From a virus (Duplodnaviria > Caudoviricetes), in the IMG/VR virus record IMGVR_UViG_3300037153_000401, positions 1-54,555 of that record: a stretch of DNA of 54,555 bases. One strand, written 5' to 3'. The notes beneath the pieces were generated by a model. The model was not told the DNA's origin, did not search any database, and saw only the letters and a list, made by a program, of their open reading frames with translations. Both the position numbers and the translations under genes were made by a program. Shown here piece by piece: positions 44,594-47,727 of this stretch. Every line of letters starts with the position of its first letter. Position 1 is the stretch's first letter.

Positions 44594-45991
44594 GTGCCGA
44601 GAGCCTTTCCCTCGACCAACCCAAATCACCTGTATTTTCAAAACGATAATTTCTACTCCTGTTGTGCCGAGAGCCTTTCCCTCGACCAACCCAAATCACG
44701 ATTCGGTTTGAATTCGAGCGCGAGCTCCTGCTCCTCAAGTGCCGAGAGCCTTTCCCTCGACCAACCCAAATCACGTCATTCACCGTAGAGCGACGTGTGA
44801 TCACTTCAGTGCCGAGAGCCTTTCCCTCGACCAACCCAAATCACCCGCACCACGTCAGCAATTGCAGGTAGTACCCACAAGGTGCCGAGAGCCTTTCCCT
44901 CGACCAACCCAAATCACCGGGGACACGGTGACACTGGTGACACTTCAGCCAAGTGCCGAGAGCCTTTCCCTCGACCAACCCAAATCACCTGAAGCGTGTT
45001 GGACAGAGTGGCGGCTGCGCGGCTTGTGCCGAGAGCCTTTCCCTCGACCAACCCAAATCACTTTTGCTGTTAATCTTTTCCGGGTCTACTCCAGTCTGTG
45101 CCGAGAGCCTTTCCCTCGACCAACCCAAATCACTCGGTGATTTCGATGATCCTATTTCCGAGTTCAACGTGCCGAGAGCCTTTCCCTCGACCAACCCAAA
45201 TCACCACGCCGAGTGAGATCAATTTGTTTCCAAGCCACTTGTGCCGAGAGCCTTTCCCTCGACCAACCCAAATCACTCATGGCTTCGTCCCCAATCAATT
45301 CCGCCGACAATGTGCCGAGAGCCTTTCCCTCGACCAACCCAAATCACGCAGAGCGAGGCGGGCAATCCAATACTGATCGAAGTGCCGAGAGCCTTTCCCT
45401 CGACCAACCCAAATCACTTTCATGAATTTCATCAACGGGATGGCTGAAACTACGTGCCGAGAGCCTTTCCCTCGACCAACCCAAATCACATCGAGTCCCA
45501 CAGTCGCCGCATAGCGTGCCGCGAGTGCCGAGAGCCTTTCCCTCGACCAACCCAAATCACCGTGACGCGCGGCTGATCAGGTTTGAACGTGTAGCGACGT
45601 GCCGAGAGCCTTTCCCTCGACCAACCCAAATCACCGGCTGGGAATTCCAGCGCGGCCGGCTGCTCGCTGTGCCGAGAGCCTTTCCCTCGACCAACCCAAA
45701 TCACCAGATAACTGTGGATTTGCTGGGTTGATTATTGTAAGTGCCGAGAGCCTTTCCCTCGACCAACCCAAATCACTTCAGGCCACGCAGGAACTGCCGG
45801 CGGTTCAAGGACGTGCCGAGAGCCTTTCCCTCGACCAACCCAAATCACAACTGTGGATTTGCTGGGTTGATTATTATAGTATCGTGCCGAGAGCCTTTCC
45901 CTCGACCAACCCAAATCACGGTGTTACCTTGGGATCGTCAGATACATTTCGGAATGTGCCGAGAGCCTTTCCCTCGACCAACCCAAATCAC
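44594..45991 (-). CRISPR. CRISPR array: 20 identical 36-bp repeats, 19 distinct spacers (34-39 bp)
   Basis: Repeat on + is GTGCCGAGAGCCTTTCCCTCGACCAACCCAAATCAC. On - the stem GUCGAGGG/CUCUCGGC pairs fully using 2 G:U, which are mismatches on +, so transcription is on - like the effector gene. Confidence 0.99.
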
Positions 45992-45996
45992 TGCAA

Positions 45997-47727
45997 TTAC
46001 CCAACCTCAATCGCCATCTCACTTGCCGCCATAACTCGCACGTATCGCCGCAAATGATCAGGGATTTCGACCGGCGACGCGGAGATGCTTGCGCCGCCTT
46101 CTATCTCGCTGAGCAATAAACGACTTGTATTAACGTCGTTATCCTGTTTATGGCCGTTTTCGCACACGCGGAGGAGCTTGCGTCCCTTTTCGACCTTTCC
46201 GCCGCATTCAGAGCAGGTCTGCGTCGAATACGCCGCCTTGTGGTTCCGCAGCGCGCCTTTGTTTTTTGGATCAAGCTCCGGGTCGTGGCGAAACTTTTGC
46301 GCTGCCTGCTTGATTCGCTCCCGCAGATAATACTGCCCGACCAGCTGGCGATACTTCTGCGAGGGATCGCCCGCGCCTGCTTCCGCCATTTGCTTCAGCG
46401 ATAGGTCGCCTTCCCACGCCACGATATCAAAGCTGCGCATAATCCATGCCGCGACCTGCTTATAAACCTCTTCCTTCAACTGCGCGAATTCGAGTTCAAG
46501 CGCCCGCTTTTTGTGGTGAAGCCAGTCGATGATCAAGGCCAGTTTCCAAAGCAAACTTGCAGCTTCCAGGTCCGTCCCTTCCAACTTCTCGCGCAGGCGT
46601 TCAAGTCCGCCCTGACGCATCTTGGTAAAGCCCAGCATCGTTTGCCGCGCTTCCTCCGGCCACTGGTCTTTTTTGCGATCATAGATCGCCTTCAACGCTT
46701 GCTTGCAGTTTTCCACACAGTCCCCTGTTTGCTCGGACAGCAAAACCAATCGCCGAACGTCTTTCTTTTTGGGTTCAATGCATTTCTTATCTGCGCGACT
46801 ACTAAAGTCGAACGGCATGGCAATCTCGTAGGAATGGCCAGCATTGTCGGTGAGAACCCCCACTCTCACCCGATCACCCATTAGCCGCCATCCGCCCGAG
46901 TCGTAGCCCGCCACGCGGCCCGTCATCTCGCGTGGCAGATTAAGCGGGGGCATTTCAAGAGAAAATTGGATTTCGTATCTGTCTCGAAAGCCCCGCTCCG
47001 ACTGTCGCACCAATGTAACACGCTTAACTATCGCGTGCGGCGGCGGCAGTCTGTGTATGCTGACCAATAGCTTCAAGTGTCGCAGTTTTACATCGGCGCC
47101 CTGCGGCGTTTTCACTCGAAATTCAAGATTATGCTTAGCGCCCGGCGCCGCCTCCGGTAACCGATAAAGCGACACATTGCCGCCTTCGCCGTATAGATCA
47201 GCCCATGTCGTTTCTTGACCCGCCACCGCATTGAAATTAACCGGCAAATTCAAATTGAACTCACGATCGAGATATTTCGGCGACGGCATGCCCATTTCCC
47301 ATGAGGTATAGCCCTTGGCGGCCTTCGCCCGCTGGCGCCGCGCGGGCCATTCCTTCAGCGCCAACAGAAACCGATCCACCACGGCGTAATAACAATCGCT
47401 GGTTATTTGACCGCGATACTTCTGGCCGAACGCGCGCAGGAATTTTGTATCCTTGAATTGTTTTACTATCGCGTTTCGCGCATCTTGTTTAGCCTTTACG
47501 ACATCGTCGGGATCGCTACCGGCAATCCTGTGCGGCGCGACTTGGCGCTTTAATTCAAACGCCATGTCATTCCACAGCTGCCGTTGAAGCTCTTCGGTAG
47601 ACTTGATCCATGTCGGCATGTCGCCAACTACCTCGCACGCGAATGCCCATGCGCGAATCGGCCAATCGCGCAAGCGTTCGCGACGCGGCAGTTTCTGTTT
47701 CTTCTTTTCGGTGATCTGAATTTCCAT
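45997..47727 (-). CDS. cas12: Compact type V CRISPR effector (TnpB/Cas12 family, Cas12m/V-U1-like)
   Basis: RuvC-I AGYD278SGGWR, RuvC-II IVAWE441GDL, zinc finger C507/C510/C524/H528, RuvC-III DND533VN (ORF-track numbering); IHRLPP..AIVK motif; adjacent array; ATG 47727 fits SD AAGGAG better than TTG 47733. Confidence 0.88.
   Translation of the reverse strand: MEIQITEKKKQKLPRRERLRDWPIRAWAFACEVVGDMPTWIKSTEELQRQLWNDMAFELKRQVAPHRIAGSDPDDVVKAKQDARNAIVKQFKDTKFLRAFGQKYRGQITSDCYYAVVDRFLLALKEWPARRQRAKAAKGYTSWEMGMPSPKYLDREFNLNLPVNFNAVAGQETTWADLYGEGGNVSLYRLPEAAPGAKHNLEFRVKTPQGADVKLRHLKLLVSIHRLPPPHAIVKRVTLVRQSERGFRDRYEIQFSLEMPPLNLPREMTGRVAGYDSGGWRLMGDRVRVGVLTDNAGHSYEIAMPFDFSSRADKKCIEPKKKDVRRLVLLSEQTGDCVENCKQALKAIYDRKKDQWPEEARQTMLGFTKMRQGGLERLREKLEGTDLEAASLLWKLALIIDWLHHKKRALELEFAQLKEEVYKQVAAWIMRSFDIVAWEGDLSLKQMAEAGAGDPSQKYRQLVGQYYLRERIKQAAQKFRHDPELDPKNKGALRNHKAAYSTQTCSECGGKVEKGRKLLRVCENGHKQDNDVNTSRLLLSEIEGGASISASPVEIPDHLRRYVRVMAASEMAIEVG

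Follow-up and report, generated by a model that had tools for sequence, protein, structure and literature searches.

CRISPR arrays normally depend on a non-coding leader for both transcription and polarised spacer uptake. In the tailed soil-phage record IMGVR_UViG_3300037153_000401, analysed here over its whole stretch of 54,555 nt (the window), a compact type V effector gene runs up to its own array. This locus raises the question of how such an array could be transcribed, processed into guides and supplied with new spacers.

Direct reading of the minus strand confirmed the junction as it had initially been annotated, namely the stop codon TAA, then TTGCA, then the first repeat. The effector ORF ends in ...GAG GTT GGG TAA on the minus strand, and the in-frame TGA of repeat 1 lies two codons past this TAA. 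The annotated abutment of the gene upstream of cas12 was also correct: the stop of the 85-aa ORF is located 2 nt ahead of the ATG at 47727; with the alternative TTG at 47733 as start, the two ORFs overlap by 4 nt. Since this ORF abuts the effector start and the array begins 5 nt past the effector stop, the gene is left without intergenic space at either end. At the other end of the array, no degenerate repeat was found in the 44518-44593 flank. The features are listed in the table. Gene overlaps are frequent in this phage.

Table. Coordinates of the effector-array locus and its surroundings in the window
Feature	Position	Strand	Basis or remark
Putative effector gene, Cas12m-like (type V-M/V-U1 superfamily)	45997..47733	-	ORF, PADLOC, profile, AF2/Foldseek
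Effector stop codon TAA	45997..45999	-	Sequence and ORF translation
TTGCA, the sole non-coding, non-repeat bases separating gene from array	45992..45996	-	
TGA, nt 2-4 of repeat 1, in frame with the effector ORF (TAA TTG CAG TGA)	45988..45990	-	
Last 45 codons after RuvC-III, conserved C-terminal tail (..SISAxPVEIPxHLRRYVRVMxASE..)	46000..46134	-	
Upstream 85-aa ORF, abuts effector start, no family match	47730..47987	-	
CRISPR array, 20 identical 36-nt repeats and 19 spacers of 34-39 nt	44594..45991	-	
Repeat 1, GTGATTTGGGTTGGTCGAGGGAAAGGCTCTCGGCAC	45956..45991	-	
8-bp hairpin near the 3' end of repeat 1, followed by AC	45958-45978	-	
Spacer 1, adjoins the effector	45920..45955	-	Protospacer flank 5'-..GGATG in crRNA sense
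Spacer 8	45418..45453	-	Protospacer flank 5'-..GAATG in crRNA sense
76-nt stretch past the last repeat, GC 0.47	44518..44593	-	AAGGAG (Shine-Dalgarno-like) ahead of the 60-aa ORF
60-aa ORF downstream of the array	44335-44517	-	
First terminator-like hairpin and T-run past the array	44239..44256	-	Consensus match only

The effector comprises 578 aa when read from TTG 47733 and 576 aa when read from ATG 47727; the ATG, which is placed behind GGAG, is the likelier start. The PADLOC model Cas12u1 matched it at 1.1e-15, over residues 214-545 only (the C-terminal 60%), and the N-terminal 213 residues have no profile match. The same model was matched by all 72 of 72 superfamily representatives, the best at about 1e-50. 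The family profile matched the PDB Cas12m chain 23vw_A at 1.9e-21, and phmmer with the effector against PDB Cas12m gave 1.4e-8. The AF2 model (pLDDT 90.6, pTM 0.86) had as its best four Foldseek matches 8hhl, 8hhm, 8pm4 and 8hio, all Cas12m2/Cas12m (E 2e-16 to 1e-12, TM 0.54-0.65, 560-650 aligned columns), and Cas12f and TnpB ranked after them. These profile matches and the predicted fold identify the effector as a divergent relative of Cas12m (type V-M/V-U1). The RuvC residues D276/E439/D531 are conserved in the family alignments, so DNA cleavage by the effector may be possible. CasPhi (Cas12j) and CasLambda are likewise virus-borne effectors with an array and are not known to have an adaptation module or tracrRNA, and they were only weak structural matches, ranked by Foldseek far below Cas12m (CasLambda E 1.1e-4, CasPhi3 E 3.9e-4).

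The locus resembles the type V-M systems of MmCas12m/Cas12m2, GoCas12m and MsCas12m in its effector size class (~530-600 aa) and WED/REC/RuvC/zinc-finger architecture, in a same-strand downstream array without cas1/cas2/cas4, and in a repeat that ends in a hairpin followed by ..AC; by eye, the MsCas12m and P. propionicus repeats carry 3' inverted repeats before a terminal GAC. The available parts of the published accounts describe Cas12m systems as having no tracrRNA and processing their own pre-crRNA (PMC11013384, PMC10442227). The phage locus may be guided by crRNA only in the same way, no anti-repeat having scored above shuffled controls in it. It is set apart from them by being carried on a phage and by an effector that keeps the RuvC D/E/D, whereas some Cas12m proteins, according to published accounts, are without these residues. 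Its tail after RuvC-III (45 residues past D531) is absent from all eight of eight plasmid-borne V-M-side proteins. In the phage clade, -4 to +5 nt separate the stop from repeat 1, compared with 45-165 nt in three of three plasmid V-M-side loci with arrays (151 nt for MsCas12m, ~165 nt for P. propionicus pPRO1, ~45 nt for the M. intracellulare plasmid). A non-coding leader, which is not a formal V-M criterion, is present in these three plasmid loci and absent in the phage locus with its 5-nt gap. A phage-borne V-M effector, MvCas12m of myxophage MV-1 (610 aa, RuvC D305/E463/D555 intact), has been reported in a preprint, available in part, with an adjacent array, no adaptation genes and no tracrRNA found (bioRxiv 10.64898/2026.09.14.751636). 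Its RuvC spacing is similar to that of the present effector, and its array holds 8 spacers with no targets found versus 19 spacers here; the available text is silent on stop-array distance, polarity and leader, and the two were compared by description only.

Alignment-based scans recovered fourteen related loci, 13 from metagenomes and 1 from a genome, whose effectors share ~30-33% protein identity with the phage effector; 12 loci include the effector 3' end. In seven of these 12, the stop TGA is itself nucleotides 2-4 of repeat 1 (gap -4 nt), and one has TAG 2 nt ahead of repeat 1 with an in-frame TAA within the repeat. Three (L008-L010) carry a secondary insertion element precisely at the junction, and in the remaining one the first repeat is damaged. 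From these sequences, the usual state of the clade appears to be a stop codon formed by bases 2-4 of repeat 1 (G followed by TGA or TAA). The junction is not a matter of chance, because it is conserved across the related loci, and chromosomal loci, which are free of phage packaging limits, preserve it to the exact base. The effector clade may be regarded as a distinct branch of the Cas12m (V-U1) superfamily, characterised by an effector ORF that extends as far as the array. Further searches did not enlarge the clade. Single-protein searches of viral and genome collections gave no related loci, the alignment-based scans gave none in viral contigs and no second genome locus, and no match to the effector came from tblastn searches of GenBank phages and PLSDB plasmids. 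Among 401 genomes of one phylum, a profile search identified a real member in the one known genome alone, the other 8 matches covering only the TnpB-like C-terminal part. Neither cas1, cas2 nor cas4 was found among 40 ORFs flanking 7 of the related loci, Cas1 was not found in one relative-bearing genome (possibly incomplete), and the Cas1, Cas2 and Cas4 Pfam models had 0 matches in the 54.5-kb phage record (estimated 88% complete).

Evidence on the polarity of the array was taken from the chromosomal relatives of the phage locus. The initial annotation had favoured the effector side over the 44594 end as the site of leader function, and the relatives agree, as their variable spacers lie on the effector side and their degenerate repeats at the far end. 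L006 and L007 represent the same locus, with an identical effector CDS and 99.97% identity over 5772 nt downstream, and what distinguishes them is three repeat-spacer units immediately past the ORF, a difference that one deletion could explain instead of three gains. In L011 the proximal spacer is its sole unique spacer, while L003/L004 and L013 have the far flank alone in common. Degenerate or truncated repeats occur at the far end of the array in L002, L006, L007 and L013. The three insertion-split loci have the first 8 spacers in common, apart from 1-5 base differences in two of them, and L009 and L010 have common proximal spacers but different mid-array spacers, so that recombination or loss is also needed. 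Several arrays hold same-register variants of one protospacer, which suggests repeated uptake. Hence, arrays of this clade appear to change at the effector end without a nearby integrase, as far as can be read from these sequences.

Two spacers of the phage array could be traced to DNA from soil metagenomes. Spacer 1 matched perfectly in contigs from three of four runs, with both flanks unlike the array, and perfect protospacer contigs for spacer 8 were present in all four. Both protospacer contigs have CAT(T/C)C in common on the side that is 5' in crRNA sense (n=2), and the PAM side is drawn from these two protospacers; the soil-run contigs end inside the array. The phage's own genome has no spacer match beyond chance matches of 12-20 nt. 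An exact search with two spacers, a shared spacer core and the repeat of the window gave 0 hits in viral contigs and 0 in genome contigs.

The array probably works as a continuation of the effector mRNA, in a phage V-M-like locus in which neither an adaptation module nor a tracrRNA was found and which would cut its own crRNAs and take up spacers at the effector end. Co-transcription together with a leader role of the gene 3' end is the best reading of the sequence that we can infer, because the array lies on the strand of the gene and abuts it, no tracrRNA candidate rises beyond chance, and the relatives show the corresponding polarity. The repeat hairpin (8 pairs in the consensus fold of six repeat variants, 2 with compensatory changes), the two protospacer flanks, and the degenerate far-end repeats and extra effector-side spacers of the relatives all indicate that the array is transcribed together with the gene and gains spacers on the gene side. 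The array would then be transcribed as a 3' extension of the effector mRNA, inside a long leftward phage transcription unit. By analogy with characterised Cas12m, the phage effector itself would cut the pre-crRNA, giving crRNAs with a repeat-derived 5' handle (the 8-bp hairpin and AC) followed by the spacer, and the target motif would sit 5' of the protospacer. New spacers would enter at the effector-proximal repeat through an integrase supplied from elsewhere, and the mark for integration would accordingly fall within the last codons of the gene. In the phage, a TAA two codons early ends the ORF 5 nt before repeat 1, with the TGA of the repeat still in frame.

As there is no other room at the gene-side end of the array, any leader, internal promoter or repeat-1 processing context would be confined to the last codons of the gene. 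The initial annotation had put such a function in the ~40 codons after RuvC-III; the count needs correction, since RuvC-III (D529/D531) lies 45-47 codons before the stop. The nucleotide alignment of the last 45 codons with the relatives is free of gaps. The check proposed for this region, synonymous-site conservation, gave a divided answer. In the chromosomal clade, the final 45 codon columns rank 2 of 632 windows (0.72 versus 0.578 overall, with other peaks at 0.67-0.70 and pairs that are not independent), but between the phage gene and this clade the values were 0.52 versus 0.39 (rank 63 of 531, Fisher p 0.04-0.48, not significant). Extra nucleotide-level constraint in the last ~45 codons is therefore only suggestive. 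The same codons are conserved as protein and confidently folded, with pLDDT 95-97 (AF2) for tail residues 551-570. Two candidate elements here were set aside: the last-codon hairpins (CATTTGC/GCAAGTG in the window, TTGCG/YGCAA in relatives), which consist of near-invariant, protein-constrained bases without covariation, and a similarity between the repeat's 5' half and the final six codons of the gene (13/18, by eye), as these codons are homologous to those of the relatives.

That crRNA output is instead driven by a promoter inside these last codons, independently of the effector mRNA, seems rather unlikely. An embedded DNA signal of this kind would fit the high synonymous rank in the chromosomal clade, the 45-165 non-coding nt that precede repeat 1 in the plasmid V-M loci could accommodate a promoter, and the idea is also compatible with read-through from upstream. 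Against it, no sigma-70-like promoter was found on either strand of 44200-48600 (0 versus 2.2 expected, in a scan for the sigma-70-type consensus), the synonymous signal is not significant in the phage-clade comparison, and the codons in question are those of the conserved, well-folded tail. Terminator-like sites in the scanned region were as numerous as expected (5 versus 4.8). We also consider it doubtful that the last ~45 codons have a full dual use as structured tail, array leader and repeat-1 processing context at once. The tail might have arisen as the ORF grew through a former leader or omegaRNA-derived region to the stop built into the repeat. Since the stop precedes the first crRNA hairpin by 10 nt, the effector would bind and cut its own mRNA just past the stop, and such cutting would couple the effector level to crRNA production as a built-in negative feedback.

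The juxtaposition could also be functionless, resulting from genome compaction or leader loss, with a static, inherited array that gains no new spacers. Frequent gene overlaps in the phage favour compaction, and the lack of adaptation genes in the phage or near its relatives, including the possibly incomplete genome without Cas1, favours a static array. This account is nevertheless unlikely, considering the base-exact junction of chromosomal loci, the differing spacer content of near-identical loci, the perfect matches of spacers 1 and 8 to DNA co-occurring in the same soil samples, and the same-register protospacer variants that suggest repeated uptake. Reading of the array from the plus strand, with the 76 nt at 44518-44593 as leader, is very improbable. 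These nucleotides are the only non-coding DNA adjoining the array and are AT-richer (GC 0.47 versus 0.58), as leaders often are, and all 20 repeats are identical, so the window has no degenerate end of its own; but the hairpin would then stand at the 5' end of the repeat, unlike in the MsCas12m and P. propionicus repeats, the common protospacer flank would be on the 3' side, the effector-distal end in relatives carries the degenerate or truncated repeats and common spacers, and the plus strand has no promoter-like site. Hardly more credible is a tracrRNA- or omegaRNA-like scaffold within coding sequence, at the gene 3' end or at 41049-41084, that pairs with the repeat. An ungapped complementarity scan against both-strand shuffles gave 16.5 for the stretch at 41049-41084 (minus strand), the best in the 54.5-kb window and near the top of the shuffle range, and the fold of the 221 nt around the junction was somewhat better than that of shuffled sequences (z = -2.12, 7 of 200 shuffles being as good). 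However, the maxima of the ten shuffles were 14.0-17.5 and one of them attained 16.5, the best score within 42-50 kb was 13.5, nothing at the effector 3' end ranked high, and six relatives held nothing above shuffles. In addition, 19 of the 20 repeats have no adjoining ORF sequence, and characterised Cas12m, in the available portion of its descriptions, is guided by crRNA alone. Rfam gave 0 matches in 42000-49000 at E<=1. The annotated lack of an anti-repeat near the effector agrees with these scans, and a tracrRNA is probably absent.

These compact type V loci, from chromosomes of soil bacteria and from a phage, make up an entire clade that is without a non-coding leader and usually has the stop inside the first repeat. 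If confirmed, the preferred reading would be a natural example of coding sequence serving as leader, and it poses the tractable question of how adaptation-less type V-M arrays gain spacers. In practical terms, the locus suggests a minimal single-transcript design of ~1.8 kb plus guides, with a predicted 576-aa RNA-guided protein whose RuvC looks intact.

The arrangement had also been taken to suggest a transitional state from TnpB to Cas12, in which the guide RNA and the gene overlap as in TnpB loci. The omegaRNA scaffold overlaps its ORF by the order of 100 nt. In the present clade the overlap is 0-4 nt and the repeat hairpin is wholly inside the 36-nt repeat, so a TnpB-like overlap was not found. 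Likeness to TnpB-omegaRNA of IS200/IS605 does exist, in that guide-encoding DNA begins at the end of the nuclease gene on the same strand and the protein has a RuvC and zinc-finger core (Pfam TNB 1.4e-5, NCBIfam TnpB 1e-4, both below cut-offs). That cas12-downstream arrays mirror the omegaRNA position, with an inferred descent from omegaRNA, is already contained in the accessible part of a published account (PMC10691335). The phage guide scaffold differs from omegaRNA in being a self-contained 36-nt repeat present in 20 copies, transposon ends and TnpA are absent from the locus, and none of the neighbouring ORFs matched a transposase family. The effector of 576 aa is ~180 aa longer than TnpB (~400 aa, no REC lobe) and has a Cas12m-like REC lobe, and its query-normalised TM was 0.31-0.44 against the TnpB/TranC chains listed versus 0.54-0.59 against Cas12m. 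Considering the overlap of at most 4 nt, the self-contained repeat, the full Cas12m-like fold and the three plasmid V-M loci with 45-165-nt gaps, a TnpB-to-Cas12 intermediate is not supported by the phage locus. The insertion at the junction of L008-L010 is a real TnpB-type element with hairpin ends.

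In the initial annotation the CRISPR array was said to start 5 bp after the stop codon of the cas12 effector gene, with the gene upstream also abutting the effector, and both statements are borne out. The 85-aa ORF upstream has its stop 2 nt ahead of the effector ATG. This ATG at 47727 is the likelier start, 10 nt past a GGAG, and gives a 576-aa form which is P0001 in the protein database. The array, which ends at 44594, comprises 20 repeats of 36 nt, all identical, separated by 19 spacers 34-39 nt long, and no further repeat-like copies were found elsewhere in the window when up to 8 substitutions were tolerated. 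The effector frame beyond the stop reads TAA TTG CAG TGA, a point absent from the initial annotation, which puts the effector ORF in frame with the TGA formed by bases 2-4 of repeat 1.

Features of the effector/array junction and the array's downstream side
Feature	Position	Strand	Remark
Effector ORF, 578 aa	TTG start at 47733	minus	ORF reading
Effector 3' end, ...GAG GTT GGG TAA	TAA 45999-45997	minus	
TTGCA between effector stop and repeat 1	45996-45992	minus	
Repeat 1, GTGATTTGGGTTGGTCGAGGGAAAGGCTCTCGGCAC	45991-45956	minus	
First terminator-like site past the array	44256-44239	minus	after the 60-aa ORF that comes next to the array

Fourteen related loci with about 30-42% identity were fetched, and the 3' end of the effector was present in twelve of them; L001 and L012 were left out of the junction count because the effector runs off the contig. 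In seven of the twelve (L002, L003, L004, L006, L007, L013 and L014) the stop codon TGA is made of bases 2-4 of repeat 1, so the ORF and the array overlap by 4 nt, although these seven are not all independent, L003 being the same as L004 at the junction and the coding sequences of L006 and L007 being identical. The locus L011 has a TAG 2 nt ahead of repeat 1, and the repeat's own TAA comes next in frame. A stop at bases 2-4 is kept in every repeat variant (GTGA, GTAA and ATGA). The surroundings of the relatives are chromosomal, with polyketide, efflux and regulator genes, so compaction of the phage genome does not account for the junction. None of the 40 flanking ORFs of the related loci encodes Cas1, Cas2 or Cas4, and a Cas1 domain was not found in the 6.6-Mb assembly holding L014 (G001), which may be incomplete. 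All seven copies of the L014 repeat in that assembly sit in one array.

The junction is interrupted in L008-L010, where 1,353 nt separate the effector stop from repeat 1 (e.g. L009:4618-5970). The opposite strand of this segment encodes a 391-aa TnpB-like protein (PADLOC Cas12f-type models, 5.4e-81), and both ends carry near-identical hairpins. The segment is an insertion element, inserted precisely where the ORF meets the repeat and adjoining the GTAA of the latter; the complement of GTAA, TTAC, is an IS608-type target. The array of L005 (4060-4510) is decayed, with repeat 1 lacking its middle, the effector ORF extending about 10 codons into the array, and the five remaining repeats all degenerate and each unlike the others; 1.3 kb further downstream is a TnpB-like gene (5806-6894). 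In L013 (3809-5591) the effector is broken into two ORFs that overlap, an indel is present relative to L003 (94% and 89.5% identity on either side), and the gene is probably a pseudogene; a 4-repeat array is still present.

The question of which array end gains spacers bears on the proposal of the initial annotation that any leader function overlaps the end of the gene. The arrays of the relatives vary at the effector end, and spacer gain at the end corresponding to 44594 was not seen. L006 and L007 represent one chromosomal locus (identical effector coding sequences and 99.97% identity across 5,772 nt downstream) and differ in three repeat-spacer units directly behind the ORF, a difference that could also be one deletion; they have the far end in common, with its variant repeat and its truncated terminal repeat. 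The four far spacers of L011 recur in L010, and the one spacer unique to L011 adjoins the ORF. Only the far flank is common to L003/L004 and L013, and only the truncated terminal repeat to L002 and L006/L007. In L008-L010, in which the insertion element separates ORF and array, the first eight spacers are common, apart from 1-5 base differences in two of them. The differences between L009 and L010, which fall mid-array, speak against a simple polarity. Overall, in the chromosomal relatives it is the effector end that acts like a leader end. Two spacers of the window (45705-45740 and 45849-45883) have one target, with a 5-nt offset and one base different in the shared 29 nt, which suggests repeated uptake from variants of a single target. 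Many spacers in the L008-L011 arrays (e.g. L010:3345-4654) are same-register variants of few protospacers, with up to 8 versions of CGTAACACACTCTAC... within one array and the repeats between them unchanged, and this looks like serial uptake from diverged target alleles rather than mutation in place.

The array direction is indicated by an 8-bp hairpin near the repeat 3' end in the direction of the gene, followed by AC, which is common to six repeat variants and has both sides changed in two pairs. Similarly, the repeats of MsCas12m and Pelobacter propionicus have 3' parts with short inverted repeats (by eye) and a terminal GAC. When contigs from four soil metagenomes were aligned to the array region, spacer 1 (45920-45955) and spacer 8 (45418-45453) had perfect matches on separate contigs in three and all four runs, respectively, with both flanks unlike the array, and the spacer at 44845-44881 matched a contig of one run with 3 mismatches. 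Both perfect protospacers are flanked by CAT(T/C)C on what is the 5' side in the crRNA sense, i.e., 5'-G(A/G)ATG, which would fit a type V 5' PAM, in two cases only. Other contigs of the same soil runs (847, 4850 and 557 nt) each matched one repeat copy (45168-45206 among them) with 3 mismatches, had unrelated sequence around it, and may represent a related array or a solitary repeat. The earlier claim that no anti-repeat lies nearby holds computationally: none rose above shuffles in the window or six relatives, and Rfam gave zero matches at the locus. Two papers report Cas12m systems without tracrRNA in which the pre-crRNA is self-processed (PMC11013384, PMC10442227).

Among Pfam and NCBIfam models, only the TnpB/Cas12f-type zinc-finger region of the effector was matched, in both below the cut-offs. 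The PADLOC Cas12u1 model (V-U1, now V-M) matched residues 214-545 (1.1e-15) as well as 72/72 representatives of the wider superfamily, which numbers 241 clusters (E<=1e-3) in a set of 1.84 billion proteins, and a Cas12m chain of solved structure was matched by the family profile (1.9e-21). The AlphaFold2 model from 72 sequences (mean pLDDT 90.6, pTM 0.86) had Cas12m2/Cas12m complexes as its top four Foldseek matches over the full length (E 2e-16 to 1e-12, TM 0.54-0.65), followed by Cas12f and TnpB. The RuvC residues D276, E439 and D531 are conserved. The effector can thus be placed in the Cas12m superfamily as a divergent member, and it probably retains nuclease activity. It is rare: 5.8 billion clusters contain 12 relatives, close or moderate, GenBank phages and PLSDB plasmids gave zero matches, and a true family member occurs in only 1/401 genomes of one phylum, which was the genome already known.

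The plasmid V-M loci are arranged differently. In the characterised MsCas12m locus of plasmid pMESIL02, reached by tblastn, the stop lies 151 nt before repeat 1, unlike in the window, and the gap is about 165 nt in the P. propionicus plasmid locus and about 45 nt in that of Mycobacterium intracellulare, where a two-repeat array follows; five more plasmid homologues had no array within the fetched flank. A stop abutting or inside repeat 1 is therefore not general for V-M. The plasmid proteins terminate 4-25 residues past the RuvC-III helix in 8/8 cases, whereas the window's family has a conserved tail beyond RuvC-III (..SISAxPVEIPxHLRRYVRVMxASE..), 45 residues after D531 in the window. The tail motif is common to most superfamily representatives, and residues 551-570 were modelled with pLDDT 95-97. 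A 627-aa Manganitrophus plasmid homologue (L039:2137-4020) ends ..KEIGISATSIFNP.., with faint likeness to the start of the motif, and has no array within 700 nt downstream.

Synonymous-site conservation at the gene's 3' end, which the initial annotation proposed to test, was modestly raised within the chromosomal clade and less clearly so between phage and clade. In six chromosomal sequences, codon identity at identical amino acids was 0.72 in the last 45 columns and 0.578 overall, ranking 2/632 among the segments compared, but with other peaks at 0.67-0.70 and non-independent pairs. The phage gene compared with this clade gave 0.52 in the tail and 0.39 elsewhere, ranking 63/531 (six comparisons, not independent of each other, with Fisher p 0.04-0.48). 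Both clades can be aligned gap-free over the last 129 nt, a stretch in which the protein is also best conserved, and the fold of the junction RNA is only a little better than that of shuffles (z = -2.12). A nucleic-acid signal in the coding 3' end is suggestive, not decisive.

The locus is type V-M-like. The observation of the initial annotation is confirmed and extended, and its interpretation is partly supported. The analogy with TnpB is positional only. From the sequence, the best reading would be that the effector mRNA and the pre-crRNA form a single transcription unit, that the effector itself processes the pre-crRNA, and that the leader role in spacer uptake sits in the effector's last codons, with an integrase supplied in trans or none. 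No sigma-70-like promoters were found on either strand between 44200 and 48600 (2.2 expected). The stop at repeat bases 2-4 is 10 nt ahead of the first hairpin, so a cut made in processing repeat 1 would shorten the effector mRNA to just past its stop; that such trimming couples effector and crRNA levels is speculation. Earlier work already describes arrays downstream of cas12 that mimic omegaRNA and V-M without other cas genes (PMC10691335), and phage-encoded Cas12m with an adjacent array and neither tracrRNA nor adaptation genes (2026 preprint, bioRxiv 10.64898/2026.09.14.751636). No description of a stop codon that lies in repeat 1 or adjoins it was found in literature searches at abstract level or in excerpts of the Cas12m, Cas-delta and TnpB/Cas12 papers. 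New here are the ORF/repeat junction seen across the clade and an array polarity without a leader.

The window spans the whole of a linear IMG/VR virus record of 54,555 bp (genome completeness estimate 88%), and encodes terminase, portal, major head, tail/lytic and endolysin proteins, two ParB-like proteins, and no Cas1, Cas2 or Cas4 domains. Nearly all genes between 9.9 and 54 kb are on the minus strand. A short way upstream of the effector (48505-52286) are a PAPS-reductase-like gene (phrog_12882, 3.8e-143) and a 610-aa C5 DNA methyltransferase with a repetitive middle part, which may form a DNA-modification module. The ParB-like genes lie side by side (393-2107) and could point to a plasmid-like prophage lifestyle. 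A 53-nt stretch (44160-44212) at the start of an OMP beta-barrel-like gene (43676-44203, minus strand) was matched with 3-4 mismatches by many short contigs, some deeper than the phage, and is a conserved or repeated element.
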